Shown: piece after piece, positions 12,950 through 52,270 of the stretch
Numbering within the stretch: position 1 is the first letter of the stretch
How the letters are laid out: each line of letters begins with the position of its first letter
From: an uncultured Bacteroidia bacterium
GTDB lineage: Bacteria; Bacteroidota; Bacteroidia; JAIBAJ01
Assembly (NCBI GenBank): GCA_965284645.1
Contig: OZ260106.1
Span: forward strand, 342,992 to 406,991
Length of the DNA: 64,000 nt
Direction: 5' to 3'
Made by a program: the position numbers and the translations under genes
Notes under the pieces: model-generated
Seen by the model: the letters and a program-made list of their open reading frames with translations, nothing else
Database searches by the model: none
Told to the model about the DNA's origin: nothing

Positions 12950-13312
12950 TGCCAAAACCTTTTGTGCCAGATTTCCAGATGGTGCTGGGCAAAAGCGTCG
13001 GGCTCTTCACTGCAAGTCCTCGCCCATCCTCCGCTAAGCTTCGGCTGGGCTGTGGGCTTTCCGTTGCGATCCCTCACGCGGGGTGTAGTGCTGGAATTAA
13101 CCCTGATTACTTTCAAATCGGATTGGTACAGTTTGTTTTTTAGCCAAAGCCAGGAGCGGGGTTTCGGGCAAGGATAGAGGCAGTCTAGCCCACAGGGATG
13201 CGGAGGCACGGAGCAGACCGAGGACTAGCGCCGAAAGCCTGACCCGACGCCCTTGCAGACTGCTTAGATTCAGCACCACAGCTGTATTAGGCGGAGGGGG
13301 CCCGCCAAAAAA
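12950..13312 (-). repeat. Family-1 GC-rich palindromic repeat, copy A (well-preserved right arm 13157-13312, degraded left arm about 12950-13090)
   Basis: 13157-13312 is the reverse complement of copy F (52101-52270) at near identity. It contains the core CCCACAGGGATGCGGAGGCACGGAGCAGACCGAGGACTAGCG and the terminus GGGGGCCCGCCAAAA. The left part keeps diverged arm remnants (CCTCGCCCATCCTCCGC..CTGTGGGCT). The small ORFs called here are spurious. Confidence 0.75.
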
Positions 13313-13318
13313 AGGAAT

Positions 13319-13350
13319 AAAAAAAAGCCGACACTTTTGGCATCGGCTTC
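13319..13350 (-). terminator. Probable Rho-independent terminator after the DUF3127 gene
   Basis: On the minus strand the sequence AAGCCGATGCCAAAAGTGTCGGCTTTTTTTTATT (7-bp stem plus T-run) lies about 20 bp past the 13371 stop. Confidence 0.45.
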
Positions 13351-13370
13351 GGGTATTAAGAAAGGATTAA

Positions 13371-13787
13371 TTAGAAAGGTAAATCGTCGTCGGCAGGGGC
13401 CAAACTTGGGTTAAACGAATCGGCACCGTTGCTGGCGGGTTGAGCATAGGCCGAAGCAGCTGCAGGTTGAACTTGTGGCTGGGCATAGGAAGCACCAGGC
13501 GTTGCTGTAGCGCCCAAACGTTCGATTTTCCAGGCACGCAAATCGGTGTACCAGCGGTCGTTGTATTCGCGACTTTCCACATCGAAAGCCACCCGCACCT
13601 CGTCGCCCACTTGGTAGGTTTTTACTTCATTGGCTTTATCGGTCCAAAAAAGCAAAGCCACCTTTTTGGGGTAGCGGTCGGTAGTTGTTTCAAGAATTAC
13701 GGTAGATTTTACCCATGGTCCATTGGCACCTTGTCCAGTAGTTTCGCCGGCGAACTTGAAAATGCGGCCGATGATTTCGTTTGGCAT
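13371..13787 (-). CDS. DUF3127-family protein with SSB-like acidic C-terminal tip (…ADDDLPF)
   Basis: 138 aa. MPNEIIGRI..G..W.KSTVILET..DRYPKK..LLFWTDKA..V..GDEVRVAFDVESREYNDRW.TDLRAWKIER matches the remembered DUF3127 pattern (..E..YPKK..F...GDK......G......D.ESRE..GRW....AWK.E.). The low-complexity A/Q/P linker and final DDDLPF resemble the SSB C-terminal protein-interaction tail (DDDIPF). Confidence 0.65.
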   Translation of the reverse strand: MPNEIIGRIFKFAGETTGQGANGPWVKSTVILETTTDRYPKKVALLFWTDKANEVKTYQVGDEVRVAFDVESREYNDRWYTDLRAWKIERLGATATPGASYAQPQVQPAAASAYAQPASNGADSFNPSLAPADDDLPF

Positions 13788-13914
13788 TGTATTGATATTG
13801 AAAAGGTTTAAAAAATAAAACCAAGAAAACGGAAGAACATTTCCGTCCTTGACGAATACAAAATTAGGATGTTTGTTCGAAAAAATTTCAATTGTTCATA
13901 ACTCTAAACAAGCA

Positions 13915-14577
13915 CTAATGCGATTTCTCTTCCAGGAGGGGAACAAATTTAAAATCGCCATATTTATAGGTTTCCACCTTTCCTTGGGGGTCTTTAACCA
14001 GGCTAAGCATTTCCTGTTTATCGCCTTCGCCCACCGGAATTACCATGATTCCGCCCGGCTTGAGTTGTTCCACCAAAGCCGGCGGAATAAAAGGAGCACC
14101 GGCCGTAACGATAATTTTATCGAAAGGCGCGTAGGTAGGCAGACCTTGGTACCCGTCGCCGTAAAACAATTTAGCTTGAAAACCCATGGCAGGCAAGGCC
14201 ACTTTGGTGCGGTCGTACAAGGCTTTTTGTCGCTCCACCGAAAACACCTTGGCGCCCAGTTCGCACAGAATGGCGGTTTGGTAGCCGCTGCCTGTTCCGA
14301 TTTCAAGCACCTTTTCGCCCTTTTCCACCATGAGCAATTGGCTTTGGAAACCTACAGTAGAAGGGTGTGAAATGGTTTGTCCGGCCCCGATTTTAAAAGC
14401 CATATCGGTATAAGCCTTGTCGTAAAAGGCCGAATCAAGAAACCAGTGGCGAGGCACCTTTTCAATCGCTTTCAAAACCAAGGGATCAACGATGCCCTTT
14501 TCTTTCAGTTGCAGACAAAGCTGCCTTCTTCTTCCTTGGTCTTTAAGGTGATCGACGTATCCGTTCATGACGGGCAA
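13915..14577 (-). CDS. pcm: Protein-L-isoaspartate O-methyltransferase
   Basis: 220 aa. Shows PCMT motifs (..VPRHWFLD.., SAM-binding VLEIGTGSGYQTAILCEL, ..IPVG..QEM). The length is typical. Confidence 0.9.
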   Translation of the reverse strand: MPVMNGYVDHLKDQGRRRQLCLQLKEKGIVDPLVLKAIEKVPRHWFLDSAFYDKAYTDMAFKIGAGQTISHPSTVGFQSQLLMVEKGEKVLEIGTGSGYQTAILCELGAKVFSVERQKALYDRTKVALPAMGFQAKLFYGDGYQGLPTYAPFDKIIVTAGAPFIPPALVEQLKPGGIMVIPVGEGDKQEMLSLVKDPQGKVETYKYGDFKFVPLLEEKSH

Positions 14578-14690
14578 AAATAACCTACAAATTCAAGCTT
14601 CCTTGCATTCTGAAAAACTAAATTTTTCAAATTTTTACGAATTATTTATACATTTGTAATCGAAATATAAATTATTAATTCCTTTCTTTT

Positions 14691-15980
14691 ATGACCGAAC
14701 GATTCCTTTTTTATCTCTGGCAATTTCGTCTATTCAACCTAGAAAACCTCAAAACAAGCACCGGCGAAGAGCTCAGCATTATCAAGCCTGGCGAGTTAAA
14801 CAGCCATGCCGGCCCCGACTTCCGAAATGGATTGATTAAGCTAGGACAAACCACCTGGGCAGGCAACATCGAAATCCATATCAATGCCAGCGACTGGAAC
14901 TTACACCAGCATACAGGTGACGAAAATTACGACAATATTATCTTACATGTCGTACTCGACAACGACCGAATCATACTCCGCAAAAACGGAGAACCCATAC
15001 CGACCTTGGAGCTTAAAAACAGAGTAGACTGGAAAATATGGGAAAACTATCGGCAATTGCTGCAATCCAGACAATGGATACCTTGTTCCAATGACTTTGT
15101 CCAGGCCGAACCCCTGGTGTTGAAAATGTGGGTGCAACGGTTGGCTATAAACCGCATAGAACGTAAAGCCGGAGAGATAGAAACCTACCTTAACCTCACC
15201 AAAAACAACCTCGACGAATCCTTCTATTTCCTATTGGCCAAGAATTTCGGGTTCTTTGTTAATTCCCTTCCCTTTGAAATGTTGGCCAAATCCATCCCAC
15301 TCAGCATCATCGGCAAACACCGTTCCACCCTCTTCCAAATCGAAGCCTTGCTGTTTGGACAGGCCGGATTGCTAGAAGAACAGTTGCAAGACACCTATTA
15401 CAATTCTCTGCAAAAAGAGTACGCCTTCTTGCAAAACAAATTCAAGCTTCAAGCCATGCCCGGTCACCTATGGAAATTCCTAAGACTAAGGCCTAGCAAC
15501 TTTCCTACCCTGCGAATAGCCCAATTTGCGGCCTTGCTGCACCAAAACGACCGGATACTATCCCAACTAGCTGAAGCAAGTTCCATACAAACAATCGAAA
15601 GTATCTTCCAAATCCAGCCATCAGATTATTGGCTGACCCATTATCGCTTTGGGAAAGAAGCCCAAACCAAGTCCAAACACCTAGGTGAAACAGCCATTCA
15701 AAGTATACTGATCAATTCGGTAGTCCCAATGCTATTTGAGTTAAATAAAAAGCAGTTGGGACAGCAGTTGCAGGAAAAGGCCATTCAATTTTTGGAAGAG
15801 ACAAAGGCAGAAGACAATTCATTGACAAGAGGATATGAAACCATAGGATTTAAGGCCGAGAATGCCTTGCAAAGTCAGGGATTGATTGAGCTGAAACACA
15901 ACTTTTGCGAAAGGCGAAAATGCCTGGAATGCAGCATCGGGAATCACTTATTGGTGAAAGGAAGGGTGGCCCAAGTTTAA
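14691..15980 (+). CDS. DUF2851-family protein
   Basis: 429 aa. The N-terminus FLFYLWQFRLFN... and the overall size match the Bacteroidetes DUF2851 family. There are no catalytic motifs. It ends ..RRKCLECSIGNHLL (Cys pair). Confidence 0.6.
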   Translation: MTERFLFYLWQFRLFNLENLKTSTGEELSIIKPGELNSHAGPDFRNGLIKLGQTTWAGNIEIHINASDWNLHQHTGDENYDNIILHVVLDNDRIILRKNGEPIPTLELKNRVDWKIWENYRQLLQSRQWIPCSNDFVQAEPLVLKMWVQRLAINRIERKAGEIETYLNLTKNNLDESFYFLLAKNFGFFVNSLPFEMLAKSIPLSIIGKHRSTLFQIEALLFGQAGLLEEQLQDTYYNSLQKEYAFLQNKFKLQAMPGHLWKFLRLRPSNFPTLRIAQFAALLHQNDRILSQLAEASSIQTIESIFQIQPSDYWLTHYRFGKEAQTKSKHLGETAIQSILINSVVPMLFELNKKQLGQQLQEKAIQFLEETKAEDNSLTRGYETIGFKAENALQSQGLIELKHNFCERRKCLECSIGNHLLVKGRVAQV

Positions 15981-16036
15981 AACTTGGGCCTTTGGGGATT
16001 AAAGTCTTAGACTTGAATAATTGAAACCATAATAAA

Positions 16037-16639
16037 ATGAACCATCGATATAAAATCAAAAATAACAATCCGCTTTACATAACCTTTACGGTCACTGGTT
16101 GGATTGATGTATTCACACAAAAAGAACATATTAATATGCTTTTGGAATCTATTGAGTACTGCCAAACCAATAAGGGGCTTAAGCTTTATGCTTGGTGCCT
16201 TTTGCCAAGCCGACTCCATATGATAGTAGATGTAGCTGAACCTTTTCAACTTTGGGAAATTGTCAGGGACCTTAAGAAATTTACAGCAAAAAAATTGGAA
16301 TCTACCTTGCAGGAAGAAACAGAAACGAAAAGAGAATGGCTTCTAGACAAACTCTCCTTCTATGGCAGGTACAATATTAATAACCAGTACTTTAAACTAT
16401 GGCAAGAAGGCTATCGACCGATTGAACTGTATAGTCAAAAATTCTTCTTTCAAAAGCTGGACTTTATCCATTCTATTCCTGTAAAAGAACTAATTGTGAC
16501 AAATCCCTGGGATTACAACCTGAGTAGTGCCAAAAACTATGCAGGGATGGCTGGGCTTTTGCAAGTTCAAATAATTGATCGCGACAATTTGGATAATACT
16601 CCGACTTACGTGAACAATCCGAACGAGGATGAAACTTGA
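16037..16639 (+). mobile_element. IS200-like single-domain HuH/Y1 transposase of the REP-associated (RAYT-like) type, about 200 aa
   Basis: PLYITFTVTGWIDVFT..(beta1)..KGLKLYAWCLLPSRLHMIVD (HuH motif = LHMIV) ...LWQEGYRPIELYSQKFFFQKLDFIHSIPV..YNLSSAKNYAG follows the architecture of the about 190-aa Bacteroidetes IS200-like/RAYT transposase family (Y..FTV.T..W..VF..., KG..I..W..MP.H.HMI, ..FW....H...E.....F..QKL.YIH.NPV). It is a single gene with no IS605 TnpB partner. A degenerate family-2 repeat lies immediately downstream. Confidence 0.8.
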
Positions 16640-16829
16640 AATACTATTTGAAAAGACATAAATTTACCGCATATAGTAAAGTTTGAAAGTGGATTCGGGC
16701 TGCACCAAAGGCAAAGCAAGTAAGTGCTTTCCCCAATTTCGATTTACCCGAAGAAACTATCACTTATCTCGATATTTGGGCCAAATCTTTCCAAGAGTTA
16801 TTGTTTTAAACCTTGCCGCGATTACGAAC

Positions 16830-16995
16830 TAATCAAATTAATAAAGAGGAGATTTAATTATCCGAACTTTCTGATTTTGTTGAGTTCACCCCTACCAAAG
16901 AAATTTCGGTACAGCAGCCGTTTTCGATTTGGCCAAACAATTTGATTTACAACTGGTTAATCGATTATCCATTACTAATTCGTAATCTGGGTCTA
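16830..16995 (-). repeat. Degenerate family-2 AT-rich repeat copy (reverse orientation) just downstream of the RAYT-like gene
   Basis: ATTAATAAAGAGGAGATTTAATTATCCGAACTTTCTGA...CCAAAGAAATTTCGG...TTTGATTTACAACTGGTTAATCGATTATCCATTACTAATTCGTAATCTGGGT aligns to the reverse complement of the family-2 consensus (…TTTACAACTGGTTAATCGTTTATGCATTTCTAATGCGTAATCTGGGTT) with many substitutions and indels. Confidence 0.6.
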
Positions 16996-17045
16996 TAACA
17001 GCCAGTCTAAGACTGGCAAAACCCAAATGACAAGTTAAAAACTTG

Positions 17046-17966
17046 TCATTCCATATACCTACCCCTTTTTATATACAAATGCCTTAAAAAAAACACACTC
17101 AAAACCAATGAAAGTATTACCGCTTTCAATCCATCACCGCTGCCTATTTTCTCTACCGACTGGTCTACAACCTTATGCTGAATCAAATAATAAAGTATTA
17201 CAGCAAAAGAATTGTTAACCGTATGAACCAAAACCGGCACCCAAATGCTGCCACTCCACAACAGCATGTATCCTAAGCCTACTCCTAAAACAAAACGAGG
17301 GAAAAAGCCATAAAACTGCATATGCAACGCGCTAAATAAAAAGGCCGTTAGAAAAATAGCCGCATGTCGATTGCCCAATTGCTTCTCAAACAAAGGCTGC
17401 AAGGTGCCTCGAAACAAAAACTCCTCACCTAGTCCAGCCAATATCCCAATCATAAATACGGTAATCAACAGATCTCCAATTCCTTCCATCTGCAAAAACA
17501 TCTCTATCACCTTCCCGTTTTTTTCCTCTGAATCCTTCATCCATTGCTCAAAACCAAAAGCATCCGGAAAATCCAATGAAGCATTCCACTCCGACATGAA
17601 ATTGATGATTGGCTGCATTGACAGAATAATCATAACACCTAAAGCCAGTTCAATCCATTTGGGTTTGGACAAGGCTCCTTTTACTTCCAATGCATTCCCG
17701 GTCGTTAATTGGGCAAAAAACAAGGAGGGAAGCACAAATCCACCAAGGGCTTGCGAAATTTGAAGAATGCGCAAAGCAGGCTTAGCCATCGGATTGGTAA
17801 GGTCCGACATCAAAACAGAAATATCCAACACGGCTATACCATAGACAAATTTTATTAGCATCAGCCCAATAAAACTCGATACGGAAAGGGAACAGAAACA
17901 AAGGATTAAGAAGGCCAAAAGCTGTAACCAAACAGATTTATTGGCTAAAGGTGGTGTTTGTTCCAT
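17046..17966 (-). CDS. CPBP-family intramembrane glutamic metalloprotease (CAAX-protease-like)
   Basis: 306 aa, polytopic. Shows signature motifs GLGEEFLFRG (EExxxR), FLFSALHMQ (FxxxH) and VLVHTVNN (HxxxN/D). Confidence 0.8.
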   Translation of the reverse strand: MEQTPPLANKSVWLQLLAFLILCFCSLSVSSFIGLMLIKFVYGIAVLDISVLMSDLTNPMAKPALRILQISQALGGFVLPSLFFAQLTTGNALEVKGALSKPKWIELALGVMIILSMQPIINFMSEWNASLDFPDAFGFEQWMKDSEEKNGKVIEMFLQMEGIGDLLITVFMIGILAGLGEEFLFRGTLQPLFEKQLGNRHAAIFLTAFLFSALHMQFYGFFPRFVLGVGLGYMLLWSGSIWVPVLVHTVNNSFAVILYYLIQHKVVDQSVEKIGSGDGLKAVILSLVLSVFFLRHLYIKRGRYME

Positions 17967-17968
17967 AG

Positions 17969-18685
17969 TTAAAATGCAAGTCCAAAATTAGCACCAAAGT
18001 TTAGTTTAAATGGCATGGAATAATAGCCATAGGCTTCATAAACCTCGTTCATCCTTGCCTTTCCTGATGCATCAATATAATACCAGTCGTTCTTTTTATA
18101 ACCTAAACCCGCATACAAATCGAAACAAACCCGACCAGCTATAAATTGATAGCCAAACAATAAATTCACATTCCAATGAGTAACCGAAATAGCATCAACA
18201 CTAGCTGTATTTTTAGGCTTAATCGTATAGTTCAAATAGGAAAAATGAGGACCAACCCATAAGCCTCTTGGGGCCCTAATTCTAGCAATAGGATAATACC
18301 GCAAACCTACCTGAAACCTAAAACCGTTTAAAGCAAGCTTGGGTGATCCATTTAGTTTGTTCGAATCCACATTCTCTATCATTCGAAGCATAACCCCTTT
18401 AAACAAATAAGAACCACTCAGCATAAGGGTGAGCTGCTTGTATAGAACCGTTTCGTTCATATACCTCAGTTCCGAATTGAAGGGCGTATTTCCTACCAAC
18501 AAGGTAAAAGGATTGGTTTTATGCACCATCCTAAATTGACGAACCTCCTTTCCGAGATCGTAACTTTGTATATGTGAATTCGCATCAATTCCTTCTTGCT
18601 GAGGGAAATAGTCAGGAATGGTATCTTGGGCCTGTAATCCTATTCCATACAAAAGAAAAAATAGAAGCAAAAAGTGCTTTACCAT
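17969..18685 (-). CDS. Putative outer-membrane beta-barrel protein (signal peptide, C-terminal Phe)
   Basis: Starts at Met15 of the track ORF (MVKHFLLLFFLLYGIGLQAQ). Shows an alternating hydrophobic/aromatic pattern and ends ..FKLNFGANFGLAF, typical of OMP beta-barrels. The family is not identified (DUF3575-like?). Confidence 0.55.
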   Translation of the reverse strand: MVKHFLLLFFLLYGIGLQAQDTIPDYFPQQEGIDANSHIQSYDLGKEVRQFRMVHKTNPFTLLVGNTPFNSELRYMNETVLYKQLTLMLSGSYLFKGVMLRMIENVDSNKLNGSPKLALNGFRFQVGLRYYPIARIRAPRGLWVGPHFSYLNYTIKPKNTASVDAISVTHWNVNLLFGYQFIAGRVCFDLYAGLGYKKNDWYYIDASGKARMNEVYEAYGYYSMPFKLNFGANFGLAF

Positions 18686-18738
18686 GTTTGACAAAGTTAA
18701 GTCAGAATTTGGAGATACACACCCCAAGTCTTTAATGG

Positions 18739-19170: not shown

Positions 19171-19174
19171 AATT

Positions 19175-19729: not shown

Positions 19730-19740
19730 TGCTTACCTTC

Positions 19741-21413: not shown

Positions 21414-21573
21414 AGCTAGAATTTTGAGGGGGCAAAGGTAATGGAAAAGAAAGTAGGCCCATGAAGAATCAAGACTGGGAAATGGAAATTTTAAACCGAC
21501 TATTTTTGGGGAAAGGAACAGTCCAAAATCAAAGGACTAGCTTTCGAATGTAGTTGCATTTGATTGGATAGAA

Positions 21574-22082
21574 TTTTTTGGCGGGTCCCTTTTCGGCCAT
21601 AACCATACTACCCCGAATAAACCATTTTCCTGGGCCGAAAAGGTCGCGCTTTCGCTAATACTCCTCGGTCTGCTCCGTGCCTCCGCAGCCCTGTGGGGTA
21701 TCACGCTCTATCGCTACCCGGGGTTCTTCGTGCCCGGTTTTTGGTGAAGTACTGGGCAGTAGTATTCCATGCCGGGGCAATAAATAGGAGGGAAAAAGTA
21801 GTGAGGAAAGAGTAGTGAGAAAATAGAAAATAATACCGAACTACCAATCAAGGACATCCCATAACTCATATCTCATAACTCACTTCTCTTTTCTCTTTCC
21901 TCTCTACTCTTTTCTCTTTCCTCACTTTACCTTCTCCCGTCCGGGTAGGGATAGCAACGGATAGCCCACAGGGATGCGGAGGCACGGAGCAGACCGAGGA
22001 CTAGCAGTGAATAGCCCGACCATGAGCCCAGTATACTGCCAAATCAGCGGAGAATGCTTGTGGCGAATGGGACCCGCCTAAT
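21574..22082. repeat. Family-1 GC-rich palindromic (foldback) element, full-length copy B (about 510 bp)
   Basis: Terminal inverted repeats GGCGGGTCCC (21577) and GGGACCCGCC (22070). The left arm is ..CTCCTCGGTCTGCTCCGTGCCTCCGCAGCCCTGTGGGGTATCACGCTCTATCGCTACCCGG.. and the right arm is its reverse complement (..CCGGGTAGGGATAGCAACGGATAGCCCACAGGGATGCGGAGGCACGGAGCAGACCGAGG..). The AT-rich centre carries inverted AGTAGTGAG / CTCACTACT and CT-rich tracts. Confidence 0.85.
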
Positions 22083-22113
22083 AAAGAAAGAAAAACTATT
22101 ACTAATGTTAAAT

Positions 22114-23819: not shown

Positions 23820-23850
23820 ATCGGCGGGTTGAAAAGCCCGCCTTTTTTGT
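23820..23850 (+). terminator. Rho-independent terminator
   Basis: CGGCGGGTTGAAAAGCCCGCC hairpin followed by TTTTTTG. It lies about 245 bp downstream of the RNase gene and directly after the small ORF 23641..23832. Confidence 0.5.
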
Positions 23851-23881
23851 CCCAAATTCATAGAACTCTGCTCAATTTTAT

Positions 23882-24046
23882 CCCAGATTACGCATTAGAA
23901 ATGCATAAAGGATTAACCAGTTGTAAATCAATTTGTATAGCCAAATTGACAACAACTGCTATCCCGAAATTTCTTCGGGAGGGGTAAACCCAACTAAATC
24001 AAGTAGTTCGGATTAATAAATCCTCCTATTGATTAATTTGGGTTTA
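23882..24046 (+). repeat. Family-2 AT-rich about 165-bp MITE-like repeat
   Basis: CCCAGATTACGCATTAGAAATGCATAAAGGATTAACCAGTTGTAAATCAATTTGTATAGCCAAATTGACAACAACTGCTATCCCGAAATTTCTTCGGGAGGGGTAAACCCAACTAAATCAAGTAGTTCGGATTAATAAATCCTCCTATTGATTAATTTGGGTT matches copies at 46012 and 52567 at above 95% identity. The termini are imperfect inverted repeats (AACCCAGATTA..CATTAG / CTATTGATTAATTTGGGTT). Confidence 0.85.
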
Positions 24047-24068
24047 TAGTGGATTCTTTAACCAATTC

Positions 24069-26403: not shown

Positions 26404-26632
26404 GTCTTTAATTTTAAAAGGTTGACGATGCAAATGTGCAACGGTATTTCCAAATAAAAAGACTCTTTTGAACAATATCTTACGCATCCACAACCGCATT
26501 TTTAGAACATTTTTCTCTAATAATACCACAAATCAAGGATTTTAAATTCTCTACTTCTTACGCATAGTTTTATTTGAAAACTGCCGAAAACTTGAAATTA
26601 ACCCCTGATTTTCTGCAAAAACAAACACAATC

Positions 26633-26752
26633 ACCTCAATCCACCCCATTTTCTCACTTCTCTTTTCCCTTTTCTCTCTTCTCTTTTCTCTCTTCTCTTT
26701 TCTCTCTTCTCTTTTCTCTCTTCTCTTTTCTCTCTTCTTCTTTCATTGTTAA
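26633..26752. repeat. CT-rich minisatellite, about 6 tandem copies of a 14-bp unit (CTCTTCTCTTTTCT)
   Basis: TTCTCACTTCTCTTTTCCCTTTTCTCTCTTCTCTTTTCTCTCTTCTCTTTTCTCTCTTCTCTTTTCTCTCTTCTCTTTTCTCTCTTCTTC. It shares the 15-mer CTCACTTCTCTTTTC with the central core of family-1 element B (21884-21898). Confidence 0.85.
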
Positions 26753-30461: not shown

Positions 30462-30480
30462 ATAAGCTTCTTTTTTACTT

Positions 30481-31015
30481 TTTGGCGGGTCCCTTTTCGG
30501 CCACAACCATACTACCCTGAATAAACTATTTTCCTGGGCCTAAAAGGTCGCGCTTTCGCTAGTACTCCTCGGTCTGCTCCGTGCCTACGCAGCCCTGTGG
30601 GGTACCACGCTCTATCGCTACCCGGGGTTCTTCGTGCCCGGGTGTAGGTGAAGTACGGGGCTGTGGTATTTCATGCCGTGGCAATAAAAATGAGGGAAAT
30701 AGTAGTGAGAAATAAGTAGTGAGAAAATAGAAAATAATACTGAACTACCAATCCAGGATATCCCATAACTCATATCCCATAACTCATATCTCACAACTCA
30801 TATCTCATATCTCATAACCTTCCTCACTACTCTTTTCTCTTTTCTCTTTTCTCACTTTACATTCTTCCGTCCGGGAAGGGATAGAAGCGGATAACCCACA
30901 GGGATGCGTAGGCACGGAGCAGACCGAGGATTAGAAGCGAATAGCCCGGTGCTTTCGCCAGGGTACACTATATTGTCTGGCACTACAGCTAAATGGCGAA
31001 AGCAGCCCGCCAAAT
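30481..31015. repeat. Family-1 GC-rich palindromic (foldback) element, full-length copy C (about 535 bp)
   Basis: TTTGGCGGGTCCCTTTTCGGCCACAACCATACTACCC.. on the left and ..CAGCCCGCCAAA on the right. The arms are CTCCTCGGTCTGCTCCGTGCCTACGCAGCCCTGTGGGGTACCACGCTCTATCGCTACCCGGGG.. and ..CCGGGAAGGGATAGAAGCGGATAACCCACAGGGATGCGTAGGCACGGAGCAGACCGAGG... The AT-rich centre has CCCATAACTCATATC repeats. It is collinear with copy B throughout. Confidence 0.85.
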
Positions 31016-31029
31016 CAAAAAAAATGGAC

Positions 31030-41068: not shown

Positions 41069-41247
41069 ATAGCCAAGTTTAACCATATTCTGCCCGTGAA
41101 AGACCAAAACATTCAAGAAGTTGTCAATCAAGCTAAACCCAACAAATGCAAGCAGGTCAATTCTCTTGGGAATTTTACAGACGATTTCTTTGTTCATCAA
41201 TGCTTTACAAAAACGAATTGGTTTAGAAGTACATTTTTGAATATTAG

Positions 41248-41465
41248 TTTTTGGCGGGCCCCCAACCGCCATAACCATTCTACCGCTGTTTAAGCCTTTA
41301 CAAGGGCGGTTGGGTCAGGCTTTCGCTAATACTCCTCAGCCTGTAGCCCCCTAAAATGCATGGGGCTGCAGGCTTGCGGGGTATCACGCTCTATCCTTGC
41401 CCGACACCTCCGCATAACCTTGTACTGAAGCTGGGCCTTTGCATTTCACCCCAGTGTGGTCAAAT
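41248..41465 (+). repeat. Family-1 GC-rich repeat, short copy D (single arm with internal hairpin)
   Basis: TTTTGGCGGGCCCCCAACCGCCATAACCATTCTACC...GGCGGTTGGGTCAGGCTTTCGCTAATACTCCTCAGCCTGTAGCCCCCTAAAATGCATGGGGCTGCAGGCTTGCGGGGTATCACGCTCTATCCTTGCCCGA... The first 120 bp align to copies F and A. The internal inverted repeat is GCCTGTAGCCCC / GGGGCTGCAGGC. Confidence 0.75.
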
Positions 41466-41495
41466 GGAAAGACAAATACAACTAACCCCCAATTA

Positions 41496-41650
41496 ACCCA
41501 AATTAATCAATAGGAGGATTTAATAATCCGAACTACTTGATTTAGTTGGGTTTAACCCGATTTAGCAGTTGTTATCAATTTGGCCATACAAATTGATTTA
41601 CAACTGGTTAATCGTTTACTCATTTCTAATGCGTAATCTGGGATTAACCC
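41496..41650 (-). repeat. Family-2 AT-rich repeat (reverse orientation), first of a tandem pair
   Basis: AACCCAAATTAATCAATAGGAGGATTTAATAATCCGAACTACTTGATTTAGTTGGGTTTAACCCGATTTAGCAGTTGTTATCAATTTGGCCATACAAATTGATTTACAACTGGTTAATCGTTTACTCATTTCTAATGCGTAATCTGGG is the reverse complement of the family-2 consensus. It lacks the CCCGAAATTTCTTCGGG hairpin segment. Confidence 0.8.
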
Positions 41651-41815
41651 AAAATAATCAATAGCAGGATTTAATAATCCGAACTACTTGATTTAGTTGG
41701 GTTTAACCCTCCCGAAGAAATTTTTGGATAGCAGTTTTTATCAATTTGGAAAAAAAATTTATTTACAACTGGTTAACCGTTTATGCATTTCCATTGCATA
41801 ATCTGGGATTAACCC
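41647..41815 (-). repeat. Family-2 AT-rich repeat (reverse orientation), second of a tandem pair sharing the AACCC junction
   Basis: AACCCAAAATAATCAATAGCAGGATTTAATAATCCGAACTACTTGATTTAGTTGGGTTTAACCCTCCCGAAGAAATTTTTGGATAGCAGTTTTTATCAATTTGG...TTTACAACTGGTTAACCGTTTATGCATTTCCATTGCATAATCTGGGATTAACCCC. It overlaps the preceding copy by the 3-4-bp terminal AACC(C). Confidence 0.8.
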
Positions 41816-45849: not shown

Positions 45850-45867
45850 GCAAGCTATCCTTTCTAA

Positions 45868-45917: not shown

Positions 45918-45934
45918 GGAAAGGCTTGAATTTA

Positions 45935-46017
45935 ACCCAGAATCCGCATTAGAATTGCCTAACGATTTTGTAGTTTGAAGTAGTAAATTCTTCTATTGTA
46001 AATTTTAGGTTGAACCC
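45935..46017 (+). repeat. Miniature (about 85-bp) relative of the family-2/3 repeats
   Basis: AACCCAGAATCCGCATTAGAATTGCCTAACGATTTTGTAGTTTGAAGTAGTAAATTCTTCTATTGTAAATTTTAGGTTGAACCC. The ends resemble the shared TIR (AACCCAGA-T-CGCATTAGAA / ..TTAGGTTGAACCC). It sits immediately before a full family-2 copy. Confidence 0.55.
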
Positions 46018-46182
46018 AGATTACGCATTAGAAATGCATAAACGATTAACCAGTTGTAAATCAATTTGTATGGCCAAATTGATAACAACTGCTATCCCGA
46101 AATTTCTTCGGGAGGGGTAAACCCAACTAAATCAAGTAGTTCGGATTAATAAATCCTCCTATTGATTAATTTGGGTTGAAAT
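46012..46182 (+). repeat. Family-2 AT-rich about 170-bp MITE-like repeat
   Basis: It is near-identical to 23882-24046 and 52567-52735 (AACCCAGATTACGCATTAGAAATGCATAAACGATTAACCAGTTGTAAATCAATTTGTATGGCCAAATTGATAACAACTGCTATCCCGAAATTTCTTCGGGAGGGGTAAACCC...CCTCCTATTGATTAATTTGGGTT). Confidence 0.9.
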
Positions 46183-46237
46183 GAAAAACTTCTCTGCAAC
46201 CAGACATGGAAAACTGCAGCCCAATTTACAATTAAAA

Positions 46238-46475
46238 CCCAGGCACGGAGACCATCGGGCAACGATAGAGGCAGTGTAGCCCACAAGGCTGTGCAGGGCG
46301 GCACCATTTGGTAAAACCAGAACAAGGTGTAAAAGTTCATTTACAAAGAAAAAAAGGGAAATGGGTGAGGTGCCGCCCTGCACAGACTGAGGACTACCGC
46401 CGAAAGCGTGACCCGGCCGCCTGGCACACTCTTTTTTTCTTGGTACAATGGTTTTGGGCGGACGGGGGCCCGCCT
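46238..46475 (-). repeat. Family-1 GC-rich repeat, copy E (reverse orientation, about 240 bp, internal hairpin)
   Basis: The right end GGGGGCCCGCCTA is the reverse complement of TAGGCGGGCCCCC. It contains GGACTACCGCCGAAAGCGTGACCCGGCCGCC (cf. copy A GGACTAGCGCCGAAAGCCTGACCCGACGCC) and an internal inverted repeat CTGTGCAGGGCGGCACC / GGTGCCGCCCTGCACAG around an AT-rich loop. It ends about 15 bp before the S41 peptidase ORF boundary. Confidence 0.75.
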
Positions 46476-46490
46476 AAGCATCCCTCAACA

Positions 46491-48221
46491 CTATCCCTTC
46501 TTTTTTCCTTTGCTTTGGAAGTCTTTTACCTTGTCTTTTAATGGAGAATTGTCGGTTACGTCGCTTAATTTGCTTTTGTAAAGGCTAGGATTTTCCAATA
46601 TTTTTAGTGCTTCTTTGATTTCGGGATCGTCCTTTAACATGCTCTCTACCCGTCCTTTGCTGTAATAATACCGGCTCAGAATCTCGCTTTTTAGTAACTC
46701 GGTAATTTCAGTTCTGAAGAGCACCAAATCCTTTTCCTTATTGGGCGATAGCTTTTTCGAAATCTCTTCAAATTCCTTTTTGATACCTTCGAAGTACTTT
46801 TCCTTTTCGGCTGTTTCTTTCAAGACTTTCAAATCCAACTCACTTTGACTTTCGTAAGTAAAATCTTGCTTTTTGACAAAATCCGTAAACTGCTGGTACA
46901 ACTCGTCGGTAACCACAAAATCGCGGGGAGCAGGAACGGTTTTATGGTTTTGGCAATACAAGGTAGCAAAATCAAAAACAACGCTTTTGTCGATCAAAGC
47001 CTTTGAAATTTCGGAATAATACTCGGGCTCCAATTTCACATCAGGGGTAATTCCACCCCCATCGTACACTGGCCTTTTGTTTTTCAGGGTGTAAAAACGA
47101 GAAATAAGAGAATCGGGAATTTTACCCACGGAGCCATCTTCGTTGCGGTTTCCATAATCAATTGCTTGTATGCAGCGACCGCTTGGAATGTAATATTTGG
47201 CAGTGGTAACTTTGAGCTGGGTGTTGTAGCTTAATGGACGCGTAGTTTGCACCAATCCTTTGCCATAGGTGCGCTGCCCAACCACAACGGCCCTGTCTAA
47301 ATCTTGGAAAGTGCCCGATACAATTTCAGAGGCAGAAGCAGAACCGCTGTTGACCAAAACTACCAATGGAATTTCGGTGTCGATGGGATTTCCTTGGGTT
47401 TTGTAGGTGGCATTCCATTCCTGAACTTTTCCTTTGGTAAACACAACCGTTTGGCCTTTTTCAATAAACAGGTTGCATAAATTTACCGCCTCTTTAAGCA
47501 GTCCACCGGGATTGCCTCGAAGGTCGAGTACCAAGCCTTCCAGCTTATTCCCAGCTTTTAGCTGTTGATAGGCTTCTTTGATTTCGCCAGAGCAGTTGTC
47601 GGTAAAGGAGGTTAAATTGATATAACCCACTTTACTGTCGAGCATACCGGAATAAGGAACAGCTTTTACTTTAATTTCCTCCCGACTCACGTTAAAATTC
47701 AACTTTCCGCTTTGTCCGGGTCTTTCAACCGAAATTTTCACATCGGTACCGGGTTGGCCTTTTAATACGGAACTGATATCGTCGTAGGACCGGCCCTCCG
47801 TGCTTTTTCCATTCACCTCCAAAAGGATATCGCCGGCCTTTAATCCTGCTTTGGCAGCGGGTGAATTTTCGTAAGGCTCGGCAATAATTACTTTGTTGTC
47901 TTTGGCCCGAATAATGGCACCTATTCCACCATATTGTCCGGTGGTCATAAAACGGTAATCTTCAATATCGCTTTCGGCAATGAAATTGGTGTAGGGGTCT
48001 AAACCTTCCAACATGGCATCAATGCCGTTTTTCATCAAATCGCCAGCATTGGTTTCATCCACATAGTACAGGTTCAATTCCTTAAACAGAGTGGTGAAAA
48101 TGTCGAGGTTTTTAGAAATTTCGAAATATTGGTCGTCAATCTTGGCAGCCGAAATAAAAACAAGCGGCAAGGCTAAGGCGCCGAGCAACCAAATTTTGGT
48201 GTTGTAAAGGAATTTTTTCAT
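46491..48221 (-). CDS. S41-family C-terminal processing (tail-specific) peptidase
   Basis: Starts at Met11 (MKKFLYNTKIWLLGALALPLVFISAA signal). Shows a PDZ domain (GLKAGDILLEVNGKS), a catalytic Ser region LVVLVNSGSASASEIVSG and a Lys further downstream (..TYGKGLVQ). About 576 aa. Confidence 0.85.
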   Translation of the reverse strand: MKKFLYNTKIWLLGALALPLVFISAAKIDDQYFEISKNLDIFTTLFKELNLYYVDETNAGDLMKNGIDAMLEGLDPYTNFIAESDIEDYRFMTTGQYGGIGAIIRAKDNKVIIAEPYENSPAAKAGLKAGDILLEVNGKSTEGRSYDDISSVLKGQPGTDVKISVERPGQSGKLNFNVSREEIKVKAVPYSGMLDSKVGYINLTSFTDNCSGEIKEAYQQLKAGNKLEGLVLDLRGNPGGLLKEAVNLCNLFIEKGQTVVFTKGKVQEWNATYKTQGNPIDTEIPLVVLVNSGSASASEIVSGTFQDLDRAVVVGQRTYGKGLVQTTRPLSYNTQLKVTTAKYYIPSGRCIQAIDYGNRNEDGSVGKIPDSLISRFYTLKNKRPVYDGGGITPDVKLEPEYYSEISKALIDKSVVFDFATLYCQNHKTVPAPRDFVVTDELYQQFTDFVKKQDFTYESQSELDLKVLKETAEKEKYFEGIKKEFEEISKKLSPNKEKDLVLFRTEITELLKSEILSRYYYSKGRVESMLKDDPEIKEALKILENPSLYKSKLSDVTDNSPLKDKVKDFQSKGKKKG

Positions 48222-48593
48222 GCAATAGGATTCCGAATGGCGAAAATACAAATTATACCGATGGTATTGGAGAAATAGTCCAATTGTCCATTTAGAGAAT
48301 TAGCCTTAAAATGGCCGATAGTACAAGGGTATAATACCAATTTTAATTTATAAATAGTCCAAAGGCTATTTGTAAATTTAGATTGGTAAATGCCGAGGAT
48401 ACAGTATGTTAGTCCAACTTTTTCTAAAAAATGTGAGCCTAAAATTGGACTGTACATAATGTCCATTCGGTATAATTTCATTTTTCAATAACAAATCATT
48501 GGATAAACTGGGTTTTCTCTTTTTGTGAATTCGGTAAAGAGAACGGTAAAAACGAATGGTTTGGTGCCAAAACTTAAAAATTGACATATTTTA

Positions 48594-48776
48594 ACCCAGA
48601 TTACGCATTAGAAATCGTAATGAAGCTTTCAAATGCAATAAAGACGAGGGTTTCAGGTTAATTTTTGGGTGAAGGAATAGTAAACTATTTTGAAGTCAAA
48701 AATTGTTCTGAAATCCTTGTATTTGAAGCAGTTGAAAGCTGTAATAGATTTCTAATGCTGAATTTGGGTTTAACCC
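48594..48776 (+). repeat. Family-3 AT-rich about 183-bp MITE-like repeat (same TIR as family 2, different interior)
   Basis: AACCCAGATTACGCATTAGAAATCGTAATGAAGCTTTCAAATGCAATAAAGACGAGGGTTTCAGGTTAATTTTTGGGTGAAGGAATAGTAAACTATTTTGAAGTCAAAAATTGTTCTGAAATCCTTGTATTTGAAGCAGTTGAAAGCTGTAATAGATTTCTAATGCTGAATTTGGGTTTAACCC. Shows a perfect-ish TIR ATTTCTAATGC. It is about 96% identical to 52272-52455. Confidence 0.9.
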
Positions 48777-49002
48777 TACATCGCAAGTTGAAGCGAAGTA
48801 AAGAAGGGCAAATGGCTTGTCTCCGAACTTAGGCAAAGACCTATTTTCACCTTCCCAATTCCATGAAATTGCACTAGTCTTGAAACAAGGTTCAAAATTT
48901 CCAGCGAAGCTTTCAGATTTTTACCAAAGCATAAAATCCTAATCCCGCAACGTGAGCGGAAAATAGCTTCCATTTGCTACCCTTCTTTTCCCTAATCCGT
49001 CA

Positions 49003-50628
49003 TTAAAGGGCTACTTGGCACCTTTTCAGATCCAACATATTCAGTGGATTGTTGGAAAGCGATTTGACTCGTTTGTTCAGAAACCTTAAAGATTCATCAT
49101 AAAACAACACAACCATGGGTGCTTCAGCCAAAGCTAGACTGTCCATTTTTGAATACATGGCCTCTCTATTCGCCTCCGAAATGGTTTGCATACTTTGGTC
49201 ATACCAGGCATCAAAGGTGGCATTGGCATACAGGGTATAGTTTGGACCGTTGGGGGTAAAATTTTTAGAATAAAGCAAACTCAGGTAATTCTCGGCATCA
49301 GGATAATCGGCTACCCACGATTTACGGAAAAAGGGGGCCTGACCTTTCGCTACTATTTCTCCATGGGTGCCGGGTGGATTTACTTCCAAACTAGCTTTTA
49401 TTCCAATCGCCTCCAATTCATGTTGTATAAACTCGCATAAATCGGCATATTGGGCGGTAATAAACAGTTTAACCGGAACCGGATTTTTGAGATAACCCGA
49501 TTTTTCTAATAATTCCTTGGCCAATCGAGGATCATAGGTATAACCTTTCACCCTATTCTCTGCTGATTTGTACAATGAAGGTGGCACCAAGCCCTGCTCA
49601 CCCGGTATACCAATATTGTTGCGGAGGTAGTGGATCATTTTTCTTCTATCCAAGGCATAGTTGACGGCCTTACGGAAATTTGGGTTTGTAACCGGACTAT
49701 TAATCACCGCACTGGCCGTATCCGAAACCAAAAAGCCCAGGTACTCAGTGTTTAGAAAGGCCGATCGTTTGAGGTAGATTTTATCGGTCAATTCCTGCTT
49801 CAATTGTCCCGACCGGGTAAGTATGGCATCTTTGTAACTACCATCATCCAAGCCGTTTAGCATATCTGTACGTCCTTGTACAAAAGCCATAAACGAGGAT
49901 TGGGCATCGCTGATGAAACTCACCGAAACGGCATCCAAATACGGAAGGCGCAACCCTTTTTCATCGAGCTCAAAATAATGGGGATTTTTGTGCACCACCA
50001 GTTTAATACCTTCTTTCCAAATAAAAAATTGGAATGGTCCTGTTCCTACTGGGTGCATCCTGAAATCATTTCCATACATTTCAATAGCCTCATGCGGAAC
50101 CACGGAGCAATAGTGCATGGCCAACATCCCCAAAAAAGGAGGAAAGGCCTGCTTCAAACTAATCACCAGTTCGGTGTCAGAAACAGCCTTAAATGCATCT
50201 TCAGAAGGTTGGGAAACATTGGCAAAAACCCATTTCCCGGGCGAGGCAACCTGGGCATCTAAAATCCGACGGAAGGAATACACAAAATCCTGGGCAACAA
50301 CAGTTCGGGAGCTGTCTTTACCAAAGCAAGGATCTACATGAAAGCGAACATCCTTTCTCAAAAAGAAACGGTAGGTTTTTCCATCTGCACTGATGGTCCA
50401 GCGCTTGGCAATGGCCGCTTGTATGTTTAATTGACTATCCAATTGCACCAGCCCGTTAAACAACAGGTTAATTCCCCAGGTATTGGACATGCTTCGGGCA
50501 AAAGCCGGATCCAAGGAGGTTATTCCTTTGGGTTCGTTATACCGAAATATTTTCTTATCGGCATGGGTTTTCCTTTCCCCGCAGGAAATCAAAAAAAGCA
50601 ATCCGGTAAGCAAGATTAATGCACGCAT
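49003..50628 (-). CDS. ABC-transporter substrate-binding lipoprotein, family 5 (peptide/nickel-binding, OppA/DppA-like); no cognate permease genes nearby
   Basis: 541 aa. Has a lipoprotein signal (LLFLISCGERK) and family-5 SBP features (..YNEPKGITSLDPA.., ..GTGPFQF.., ..W.ADYPD..). Confidence 0.75.
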   Translation of the reverse strand: MRALILLTGLLFLISCGERKTHADKKIFRYNEPKGITSLDPAFARSMSNTWGINLLFNGLVQLDSQLNIQAAIAKRWTISADGKTYRFFLRKDVRFHVDPCFGKDSSRTVVAQDFVYSFRRILDAQVASPGKWVFANVSQPSEDAFKAVSDTELVISLKQAFPPFLGMLAMHYCSVVPHEAIEMYGNDFRMHPVGTGPFQFFIWKEGIKLVVHKNPHYFELDEKGLRLPYLDAVSVSFISDAQSSFMAFVQGRTDMLNGLDDGSYKDAILTRSGQLKQELTDKIYLKRSAFLNTEYLGFLVSDTASAVINSPVTNPNFRKAVNYALDRRKMIHYLRNNIGIPGEQGLVPPSLYKSAENRVKGYTYDPRLAKELLEKSGYLKNPVPVKLFITAQYADLCEFIQHELEAIGIKASLEVNPPGTHGEIVAKGQAPFFRKSWVADYPDAENYLSLLYSKNFTPNGPNYTLYANATFDAWYDQSMQTISEANREAMYSKMDSLALAEAPMVVLFYDESLRFLNKRVKSLSNNPLNMLDLKRCQVAL

Positions 50629-50702
50629 CGCGACAAAAATACAGGGAAGTCCCTACCTTTGTTCACTAAGATTCATCAACTAATGAGGTCTTTTTTCAAC
50701 TA

Positions 50703-52100
50703 TTGCTTATGCGCCTACTTTTAATTGCTTCCCTTTGTTTTTGTTTCGAAACGGTTTTTTCCCAGGTTTACGATTCGCAAAATGTAAATCTGTTGGGGCA
50801 TTGGGACGATTCCACGGTTGTTCCTGAACCCCAGCTGGGTATTCGTTACAATGGCTGTTTTGGCTGGGAAAACCCCAACGATGGCCGCCGCTATGCCATC
50901 ATAGGCTCCTCTCGCTCCACCCATGTTATCGAGGTTACCAACCCCAATCAGCCTGTTTTTCGTTGGGAAATAATTGGTTCCCGCATCAATTGCATTTGGC
51001 GCGAAATCAAAACCTTTGGCAAATATGTGTATATCGTTAGCGACGATGGCTATCCCAACCGCTTTCAAATTGCCGATTTAAGCTATTTACCCGATTCGGT
51101 TCATTTGGTAATGGATTCGGATAGCATTTTCGCCCGCACCCATACCATTTTCATTGATGGCAACAAACTTTACTGCGCCAGTGTACATTCAGCTGGGCAA
51201 AATGGTAGCTATTCGGCCATGAATGTGTATTCCTTGGCCAATCCCGAAAAACCACTTTTGCTGCGCCGTTTGGATCAAGACTATCAATCTATCAGCCAAG
51301 TCCACGATATGTGGGTACGCAACGACACCATTTTTGCTTCCTCTGCTTATCAAGGCCTAAGTATACTCACTTTTGATACAATTCAAAACAGGTTCAACCT
51401 AGTCTCTACCCTAACCGTTTACGACAATGCGGGCTACAACCACAGCAGCACTTGGTCGAAAGATGGAAAAACCCTGGTAATGATGGACGAGGTTCCGAAT
51501 AGTTTGCCTGCCAAGGTGGTCAATGTGTCGGATATCACTCAACCCTACGTTACCGCCTATTTTAACAGTTCCGATTCTACTACACCCCACAACCCTTATT
51601 TCATTGGCGATTCGAAAATTTTTGTAGGCGCACACTACGAAGATGGCACCCAGATTTACGATGTATCCAACGAAAACAATCCGGTTCGTCTCGGCTATTT
51701 CGATACACATTGGCAAACCACGCCCGCAACTAATACAGGCGATTACCGCGGCAATTGGGGTTCCTATGTGGATTTCGGTGGCGGATTGGTTATCTCCGGC
51801 GATATGCAAAACGGCCTGTTTGTCCTGGATATTAGTCCCAGTTTAACCGGTATCGAACAGCGCATTCCCCAGCAGGCAAAGGTGTGGCCCCTCCCTTCCA
51901 AATCCCTGGTTTTCATTGATCCGGTATTGGCACAAACCTGCACAACTTGGACCTTGGAAAATACGTTCGGACAGGTGGTTAAATCGGGACAATTTATTAG
52001 CAATCAAGGACTTACTATTCAAGAATTGGCCAGTGGATTTTATCATCTATCTATTCGCACGGCTAGTCAAGAGTACGTTCTGAAGGTGGTCAAAGAATAG
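50703..52100 (+). CDS. Choice-of-anchor-B (LVIVD-repeat beta-propeller-like) protein with T9SS C-terminal sorting domain
   Basis: 465 aa. Has a signal peptide and the N-terminal YDSQNVNLLGHWDD... plus repeated beta-propeller-like blades. The C-terminal about 80 aa (VWPLPSKSLVFIDPVL....GFYHLSIRTASQEYVLKVVKE) is T9SS CTD-like. Confidence 0.65.
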   Translation: MLMRLLLIASLCFCFETVFSQVYDSQNVNLLGHWDDSTVVPEPQLGIRYNGCFGWENPNDGRRYAIIGSSRSTHVIEVTNPNQPVFRWEIIGSRINCIWREIKTFGKYVYIVSDDGYPNRFQIADLSYLPDSVHLVMDSDSIFARTHTIFIDGNKLYCASVHSAGQNGSYSAMNVYSLANPEKPLLLRRLDQDYQSISQVHDMWVRNDTIFASSAYQGLSILTFDTIQNRFNLVSTLTVYDNAGYNHSSTWSKDGKTLVMMDEVPNSLPAKVVNVSDITQPYVTAYFNSSDSTTPHNPYFIGDSKIFVGAHYEDGTQIYDVSNENNPVRLGYFDTHWQTTPATNTGDYRGNWGSYVDFGGGLVISGDMQNGLFVLDISPSLTGIEQRIPQQAKVWPLPSKSLVFIDPVLAQTCTTWTLENTFGQVVKSGQFISNQGLTIQELASGFYHLSIRTASQEYVLKVVKE

Positions 52101-52270
52101 TTTATTTTGGCGGGCCCCCAACCGCAAATACCGCTTCCTACGTCTATTATAGTTGGTGCATGGCGGTTGGGTCAGGCTTTCGGCGCTAGTCCTCGGTCTG
52201 CTCCGTTCCTCCGCATCCCTGTGGGCTAGACTGCCTCTATCCTTGCCCGAAGGCCTCCGTGCCCGGCTTT
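52101..52270 (+). repeat. Family-1 GC-rich repeat, short copy F (about 170 bp)
   Basis: TTTTGGCGGGCCCCCAACCGCAAATACCGC...GGCGGTTGGGTCAGGCTTTCGGCGCTAGTCCTCGGTCTGCTCCGTTCCTCCGCATCCCTGTGGGCTAGACTGCCTCTATCCTTGCCCGAAGGCC... It starts exactly at the stop of the upstream gene and is the reverse complement of copy A's right arm. Confidence 0.85.

Follow-up and report, generated by a model that had tools for sequence, protein, structure and literature searches.

What are the GC-rich, palindromic repeats that are scattered between the genes of contig OZ260106.1 from an uncultured Bacteroidia bacterium? The 64-kb stretch of this contig analysed here (the window) holds six such loci, for which a sequence-only reading had offered two answers: non-autonomous mobile DNA, resembling miniature inverted-repeat transposable elements (MITEs) or REPINs, or a structured RNA family that could not be assigned. 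We compared the window with a set of outside loci and contigs (L001-L019). The repeat is not a new transposon but a variant of the known Flavo-1 element, and its unit is a three-way junction of about 160 nt that occurs singly or in inverted pairs.

Nine units at six loci and their common fold

The six loci had been placed correctly. The 37-nt core of the repeat occurs six times in the window at up to three mismatches (0 expected), and the terminus TTTTGGCGGGYCCC five times (0.17 expected). A covariance model was built from 20 copies of the unit, and the window was scanned with it at E <= 1. This revealed exactly nine GC-rich units of ~160 nt, here called arms, each beginning with GGCGGG, and no further match (Table 1). 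Loci A, B and C are tail-to-tail pairs whose arms face each other. D, E and F each consist of a single unit, as had been supposed. Locus A had been listed at 12950-13312 (-); the locus stands, but the diverged second arm at 12922-13083(+) had been missed. All nine arms are intergenic, in agreement with the sequence-only reading. Their GC content is 0.53-0.59, compared with 0.43 for the window and 0.34-0.40 for the other spacers, which bears out that they are rich in GC and corrects the word 'skewed' that had been used for them.

Table 1. Arms, associated segments and AT-rich repeat copies in the window. Scores in bits are those of the covariance model.
Feature	Position	Strand	Remarks
Arm A2	12922-13083	+	98.4 bits; diverged partner of A1; P1 GCGTG/CACGC
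Arm A1 (type 1b)	13161-13320	-	152.8 bits
Arm B1 (type 1a)	21566-21724	+	166 bits; P1/P2/P3 three-way junction
B1 conserved 3' extension	21725-21775	+	CCGGG..CCCGG hairpin, T run, GGTGAAGTACTGGGCAGTAGTATTCCATGCC
Centre of B	21776-21937		AG-rich half, then CT-rich half; own hairpin of ~14-nt tandem repeats
Arm B2 (type 2)	21938-22092	-	142.3 bits
Arm C1 (type 1a)	30470-30628	+	163 bits; 22 nt past the stop of the M61 peptidase gene
C1 3' extension and AG/CT tandem-repeat centre of C	30629-30867		repeat families D14, D17
Arm C2 (type 2)	30868-31025	-	126.6 bits; 14 nt past the stop of the M1 peptidase gene
Arm D, single	41239-41407	+	117.2 bits; P3 tip is a different hairpin (AGCCTGTAGCCCC...GGGGCTGCAGGCT)
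Arm E, single	46252-46488	-	129.8 bits; 16 nt past the stop of the S41 peptidase gene
Arm F (type 1b) and short tail, single	52095-52270 (arm 52095-52253)	+	154.9 bits; GGCGGG 8 nt past the stop of open reading frame 50703-52100
AT-rich repeat, six copies	16851-17000, 23872-24047, 41484-41660, 41643-41815, 45995-46180, 52551-52735		

Pairwise identity among the arms of the window ranges from 50 to 91%, with B1 and C1 at 91%; between the cores of F and A1, complementarity is 95%. The arms of B and of C had been described as reverse complements of each other. They belong to two different subtypes with an overall identity of 64-65%; complementarity is 83% within a 71-nt core. At its right end C has GGCGGGCTG, not GGCGGGTCCC as had been given.

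The arm folds as a three-way junction of helices P1, P2 and P3. The same helices were found by RNAalifold on MAFFT alignments and by counting pairs in 24 arms aligned to the covariance model. The unit is closed by P1, a CGGGY/RCCCG helix in which T-A and C-G variants occur. P2 is a hairpin of 10-11 bp with a loop of 35-40 nt and free sequence, as illustrated by the stems CCTTTTCGGCC/GGCCGAAAAGG, CCCAACCGC/GCGGTTGGG, TGCTTTCGCCA/TGGCGAAAGCA and CACTTGCGCC/GGCGCAAGTG. The long hairpin P3 contains conserved pyrimidine loops (CTWTYC 5', CTATC 3') that interrupt its pairing. It includes a 3-bp helix (GCG/CGC, AGG/CCT, GGG/CCC or ACG/CGT), a 2-bp helix (GC/GC, AC/GT, GT/AC or GG/CC) and an inner helix xAxTCC/GGGxTx with an invariant U.G pair, followed by a variable tip. 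In D this tip is a different hairpin; in E it is expanded by ~80 nt, which lengthens the helix.

In the pair counts, 96.2% of the cells are paired and compensatory changes occur in 24 of the 30 pairs, values reached by none of 500 shuffles; in control alignments that had been slid, 37-52% of the cells pair. The alignment was fitted to the model, which is a caveat on these covariation figures; the MAFFT-based alignments agree, with compensatory changes in 16 of 28 pairs among nine sequences. We regard the fold of the arms as demonstrated. Pairs such as B had been predicted to form one long hairpin. The minimum free energy (MFE) structure of the whole B element, on one strand, is indeed a single long foldback (-126 kcal/mol, z = -12.9), but the covariation supports folding within each arm, single arms included. 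A riboswitch-like alternative pairing in F (AGGCUUUCGG with CCGAAGGCCU) is not conserved in the other arms and was discarded.

Type-1 arms carry a conserved 3' extension, consisting of a CCGGG(N10)CCCGG hairpin, usually a T run, and then GGTGAAGTACTGGGCAGTAGTATTCCATGCC. It is common to B1, C1, L002, L003, L005(-) and L008; the hairpin is followed by TTTTT in B1, L002 and L005 and by GTGTAGG in C1. Type-2 arms end in CCCGGACGG, followed by an AG-rich tract. Between the two arms of B and of C lies a centre with an AG-rich half and then a CT-rich half, made of ~14-nt tandem repeats (family D14). In L010 the centre of B is ~60 nt longer, so that centre length varies between strains. The composite of type-1 arm, centre and type-2 arm, ~0.5 kb in length, recurs at no fewer than four loci with 84-92% identity, which therefore indicates duplication or gene conversion of whole units. 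Since it is present in full in L005 and L008, 84-91% identical to B or C, the composite is a repeated unit in its own right.

Tandem repeats of ~14 nt that are CT-rich on one strand and AG-rich on the other (for example TCTCTTTTCTCTCT and TCATAACTCATATC) are located at 26631-26750, in the centres of B (21843-21941) and C (30747-30866), and at 7590-7830 of L001. They are found inside foldback centres and also alone, upstream of recN. Their copy number in L010 and L011 differs from that in the window, and at a Sediminibacterium locus they lie upstream of the arm, not downstream. Rfam matches of plant microRNA precursors to the centre of B are artefacts of the low-complexity AG/CT hairpin.

Relation of the arms to Flavo-1

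Flavo-1 (RF01705) is a motif of Bacteroidota that was described in 2010, with many copies per genome and without an assigned function (PMC2864571). It ranks among the most abundant families that Rfam classifies as small RNA ('sRNA') (PMC9029176). At curated thresholds Rfam yields no match in the window. Below threshold, the Flavo-1 model matches A2 with 29.7 bits (12992-13088) and B2 with 27.4 bits (21940-22025(+)), compared with a gathering score of 42 bits; the other seven of the nine arms are not reported by this model at E <= 1. Both matches are on the strand opposite to GGCGGG.

A direct comparison with the Flavo-1 seed alignment, taken from the supplement of Weinberg et al. 2010 (PMC2864571), established the homology. 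The pattern GGGAUAG.AAGC.GG...GCGGAUAGCCCGACC of the seeds matches the reverse complement of the P3 base of the arms: seeds read GGGAUAGAAGCGGCAUCCC...GAUACAGCGGAUAGCCCGACC and the reverse complement of the arm reads GGGAUAGCAACGGAUAGCCC...GACUAGCAGUGAAUAGCCCGACC. The feature of two short covarying helices with conserved loops (GGGAUAG...GC...GG / ...GC..GAUAGCCCGACC) that defines Flavo-1 is present in the arms. The tip CCCACAG..CCU..GACGA..AGG..GUGCGAGGAC of many seeds is the counterpart of the core described in the sequence-only reading, CCCACAG...CGAGGAC being shared.

The flanks of the seeds, which lie outside the Rfam model, hold a closing P1 (GCGUG/CACGC, GCGUU/AACGC or GCAUU/AAUGC), and a P2 hairpin is located between GCCCGACC and the 3' strand of P1. 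RNAfold gave a three-way junction of P1, Flavo-1 hairpin and P2 in all five seeds folded. In five further seeds, matching P1 and P2 sequences, GCAUU/AAUGC among them, were recognized by inspection. The P1 of arm A2 is identical to that of flavobacterial Flavo-1. These data point to the curated Flavo-1 hairpin being one limb of a larger three-way-junction module. The distribution of the arms also resembles that of Flavo-1: there are nine units in 64 kb and at least one copy in a Sediminibacterium metagenome-assembled genome (MAG), and among named sequences the closest homologues of the flanking proteins belong to Bacteroidia or Bacteroidota MAGs.

Judged by homology, the arms thus constitute a divergent lineage of Flavo-1. 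The structured family suspected from the sequence is backed by strong covariation, but it can be assigned after all. A tRNA or tmRNA origin was rejected, as ARAGORN finds neither in the window.

Dispersal, persistence and possible role

Scans for the exact core identified at least one copy among genomes, in the Sediminibacterium MAG, and seven contigs among metagenomes. These outside loci match the window only within the element, and contigs of the same species frequently end at it. A phage or plasmid origin was dismissed, there being no exact-core match in IMG/VR and no BLAST match in PLSDB.

Arms are retained at orthologous sites. Both A arms and B1 are found at the same positions in strain L009, whose nucleotide sequence is 91-96% identical, the differences between the two strains being concentrated in the P2 loops; the A2 orthologue is 94% identical. 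B1 orthologues were found in L009, L010, L011 and L019. The last of these is syntenic with the window (beta-CASP, PKD protein, RecN, M61, M1), and its M61 peptidase is 77% identical. Upstream of its beta-CASP gene, at the position of the pair in the window, two convergent arms are present. They differ in sequence in P2 and in the P3 tip, and there is no AG/CT centre between them; the fold is unchanged, and the pair is the only spacer sequence that can still be aligned between L019 and the window. One of its arms keeps the B1-type P3 base exactly, with the U.G pair changed to C-G. All that L019 retains of the C locus is a 141-nt remnant (11924-12064) with two facing P1/P2 heads (GCGGGCCCCCTCCGCCC ... 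GGGCGGAAGGGGCCCGCC), from which both P3 limbs are gone. This suggests a collapse by internal deletion between the inverted arms. In relatives whose M61 peptidase is 69% identical, no arms were found in 10-12 kb. The picture is that of an old family under structural constraint, in which whole units have at times been duplicated or converted and at times have decayed; it does not resemble a young burst of transposition.

A canonical bidirectional terminator is located after the beta-CASP gene at 23823-23842. Its stem, GGCGGG/CCCGCC, is the hexamer that opens the arms, which may be a coincidence or may mark a fully collapsed arm pair.

Could the arms be purely selfish, non-autonomous mobile DNA of the MITE or REPIN kind, whose fold is recognized in trans by a transposase, probably one acting on single-stranded DNA, and which does nothing for the host? 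We consider this unlikely. The family is dispersed in many copies with subfamilies, and the 0.5-kb composite was found at four or more loci, its unstructured centre included; to this extent the mobile-element interpretation of the sequence-only reading survives, but the hallmarks of mobile elements that we tested do not support it. A T-rich tract precedes every GGCGGG and could be a target preference, but the flanks of A, B, C and the single arms show no direct repeat and hence no target-site duplication. No insertion sequence (IS) with GGCGGGYCCC ends that could act as a parent is present in the window. The copies are only 50-91% identical and do not form the near-identical population typical of REPINs. 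There is no GTAG foot, and the unit is a 160-nt three-way junction as opposed to the 20-40-nt palindrome of repetitive extragenic palindromic (REP) sequences. Metagenome assemblies break at the element, both strands fold about equally, canonical copies occur in both orientations to genes, and the C locus has collapsed in L019, all as might be expected of selfish DNA. Against this, the site upstream of the beta-CASP gene has remained occupied, with compensatory change, since the split from L019, while the neighbouring spacers have diverged beyond alignment. The lack of copies in IMG/VR and PLSDB also argues against mobility.

The only homologue of an HUH transposase in the window is a RAYT-like open reading frame (ORF) of 200 aa at 16037-16639 (+). 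It scores 78.8 bits with REP_Tyr_transpos (NCBIfam; cut-off 80) and 26.2 bits with Pfam Y1_Tnp (cut-off 23), and is similar to Bacteroidetes subclass 2.6 (Quentin et al.). In place of the HUH motif it has SRLH, a change shared by its two closest homologues (P0001 and P0002). The catalytic Tyr is replaced by Phe in the window copy only, both homologues having kept the Tyr. From its sequence, the ORF looks like an inactivated or domesticated RAYT. It is found at the same syntenic position in L009. Distances of 2.7 and 4.9 kb separate it from the nearest arms, and the AT-rich repeat at 16851-17000 follows it on the 3' side. The loci of RAYT homologues (L016-L018) contain neither arms nor Flavo-1 matches; Pedobacter-type homologues are flanked by AT-rich multi-hairpin repeats in the style of the AT-rich family of the window, and the published REPs of subclass 2.6 do not resemble the arms. 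On the grounds of the SRLH/Phe motif, the distance of 2.7 kb, the homologue loci without arms and the dissimilar subclass 2.6 REPs, we rejected this gene as the mobilizer of the arms.

The AT-rich family itself has six copies of ~165-175 nt, which are on average 84% identical. A copy runs approximately from CCCAGATTA to TTAATTTGGG and includes several small hairpins (GCATTAGAAATGC, CCCGAAATTTCTTCGGG and GGATTAATAAATCC). The copy abutting the RAYT-like gene is absent from the same site in L009, and the copy at 23.9 kb is absent in L019. In style the family matches the repeats that flank a Pedobacter-type RAYT homologue in L017 (4544-5410), which are several tandem copies of a ~240-nt unit comprising the 3' end of the RAYT ORF. 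It is this family, not the GC-rich arms, that may be the cognate repeat of the RAYT-like gene.

Which strand of the arm is used was examined through its gene context. Eight of the nine single arms follow a co-oriented ORF (D, E, F, L001, L003, L004, L006 and L007, but not L002), and most arms of this lineage begin 8-66 nt past the stop codon of a co-oriented gene. The positions at gene ends that had been pointed out are confirmed: GGCGGG lies 8 nt from the stop codon in F, 14 nt in C2 and 16 nt in E, to which C1 with 22 nt can be added. None of the terminator-like sites listed by a terminator scan lies in the spacers of C, E and F (the scan's loop limit of 8 nt means that CCGGG(N10)CCCGG hairpins are not called). 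Transcription of the gene must therefore enter the arm on the GGCGGG strand. On this strand the consensus pairs include 30 G.U compared with one A.C, and flavobacterial seeds also conserve the invariant U.G pair, in whose place one L019 arm has C-G. Inspection revealed no consistently spaced Bacteroidetes-type TAnnTTTG box upstream of GGCGGG that could serve as the arm's own promoter, and sigma-70-type sites around the arms are at background level.

The explanation that we favour, and to which we give an even chance, is that the arms are three-way-junction units of the Flavo-1 family which, like REP sequences and bacterial interspersed mosaic elements (BIMEs), serve in this lineage as a structured 3'-end module. 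When single-stranded, an arm adopts the three-way junction, closed by P1. With the downstream hairpin and T run of type-1 arms, it would make up a 3'-end module helping transcription to stop. The arm could also block 3'-to-5' exonucleases, and arm pairs could insulate convergent genes. The family, in this respect like the REP/BIME repeats of enterobacteria, is dispersed, modular and in places homogenized, and it has kept the same intergenic sites for long periods under selection on the fold. The strand used, the 3'-end function and the mode of spread are what we infer from these patterns.

Several observations weigh against this explanation. Single-sequence folding gives weak z-scores, between -0.6 and -1.9. 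One invariant position supplies 20 of the 30 G.U pairs, and one sublineage ~7. MFE slightly favours the Rfam strand for the arms, by a mean of 1.8 kcal/mol, and thermodynamics was dropped as a means of assigning the strand; for the seeds, the advantage of the Rfam strand is 1.6-9.2 kcal/mol. On that strand the internal loops are GA-rich, a composition more often seen in RNA loops. Arm A2 and the two arms of B are not located behind co-oriented genes. A1, which starts 64 nt past the stop of the DUF3127 gene, lies beyond that gene's own terminator hairpin (13350-13324), and the L007 arm is likewise located past a separate canonical terminator. Among canonical seeds, only ~5 of 9 informative cases are co-oriented with the upstream ORF (four of the first five, one of the next four). 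A general rule that the element follows a co-oriented ORF thus fails, and the bias towards gene 3' ends is therefore claimed for this lineage only. In Flavobacterium psychrophilum, Flavo-1 matches are reported in either orientation, sense or antisense, relative to transcribed regions, and often they are not transcribed (PMC9723704).

Two further explanations have to be weighed against the 3'-end module. Each arm might be an independent gene for a trans-acting sRNA on the Rfam strand, and the pairs might be divergent sRNA genes driven from the centre, which we regard as quite doubtful. Rfam curates Flavo-1 as 'Gene; sRNA' on that strand, to which the stability of the seeds and the GA-rich loops also point, and at locus B both arms are directed towards the flanking genes; yet on this strand the unit ends with CCCGCC and an A-rich tract without a terminator, and it has a conserved C.A mismatch where the GGCGGG strand has U.G. 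Transcription of the stop-abutting arms would run head-on into the gene, neither side shows a consistent promoter motif, and many of the F. psychrophilum matches are untranscribed (PMC9723704).

The arms might instead act as DNA, by forming cruciforms or single-stranded hairpins that are bound by a nucleoid protein or by a replication or recombination protein, independently of transcription. We think this improbable. REP and BIME sequences bind IHF and gyrase, and the similar folding of both strands, the long hairpin of the whole B element, the two orientations relative to genes and the exclusively intergenic positions would all be compatible with such a role. The conserved loops, however, are strand-asymmetric, as is the ratio of G.U to A.C (30:1), and a protein-bound DNA cruciform would not usually take the form of a single arm with a complex three-way junction and a tip whose length varies. 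No candidate binding protein was identified.

The idea of a 3'-end module, proposed here for one lineage, can be carried further. Flavo-1 as a whole might not be a stand-alone sRNA but the core of a Bacteroidota-wide three-way-junction module with a REP/BIME role, read on the strand opposite to that of Rfam, spreading by a mechanism mediated by single-stranded DNA or RNA that is independent of the GTAG-REP/RAYT system, and co-opted as the 3' end or insulator of many genes. We put this forward as speculation that is unlikely to hold.

Other features of the window and comparison with known systems

Three features of the window stand apart from the arms. A third repeat of 193 nt with 95% identity is present at 48589-48781 and, directly after arm F, at 52268-52460; it also occurs in L010 (1-137). 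A giant ORF of at least 3755 aa at 52731-63998 (-) runs to the end of the window. It consists of 228-nt (76-aa) repeats arranged in a 912-nt super-repeat, with copies up to 99% identical, and probably encodes a repetitive cell-surface protein. The ORF at 5794-9276 (-), 1160 aa in length, contains a low-complexity DNA repeat GCTTTNGCCTCNGC with 26 copies of a 44-nt pattern, which probably encodes an Ala/Lys/Glu-rich coiled segment.

New in the present analysis are a sub-threshold Flavo-1 lineage missed by current annotation, the placement of the Flavo-1 hairpin within a three-way junction, the foldback pairs whose tandem-repeat centre varies in length, and the persistence of sites with compensatory change, together with a lean towards the strand opposite to the curated one. 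The data point to Flavo-1 units forming modular inverted pairs whose occupied sites can persist at about genus level (M61 77%). They also point to Flavo-1-type units sitting, in at least one lineage, directly behind stop codons and opposite to the annotated strand. For a family that current annotation misses wholly in this genome, the arms give a better search model.

Flavo-1 shares with the arms the homologous P3 base with its two small covarying helices (GGGAUAG..GC..GG / ..GC..GAUAGCCCGACC), the P1 and P2 helices in the flanks of the published seeds and, in many seeds, the tip CCCACAG...CGAGGAC. In contrast, the Rfam model covers the hairpin only, without the three-way junction. The P1 of the arms is mostly GGCGGGY/RCCCG, compared with GCGUG/CACGC in Flavo-1, and the matching arms score 27-30 bits, below the gathering score. 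Tail-to-tail pairs with an AG/CT centre are frequent here, whereas no such pairs were found in the Flavo-1 literature searched. The evidence from the arms also leans to the strand opposite to the Rfam annotation.

Like the REP/BIME sequences and REPIN-RAYT systems of enterobacteria and Pseudomonas, the arms are structured, exclusively intergenic repeats that occur singly or in inverted pairs, build modular mosaics, are often located at the 3' ends of genes and persist over long vertical descent, and a RAYT homologue is present in the genome. REPs differ in being hairpins of 20-40 nt with a GTAG foot, where the arms are 160-nt three-way junctions and much more diverged. The RAYT-like gene here, unlike that of a REPIN-RAYT system, is not flanked by the arms and, from its motifs, is apparently catalytically dead.

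Bacterial MITEs, such as the minisatellite-containing MITE of Porphyromonas gingivalis (PMC4596501), resemble B and C in their length of ~0.5 kb, their inverted ends, their variable central tandem repeat, their intergenic position and their multiple copies. The elements described here differ in having no target-site duplication and no related IS in the window. Their ends are whole structured units that also occur singly, and orthologous copies persist between relatives at about genus-level separation.

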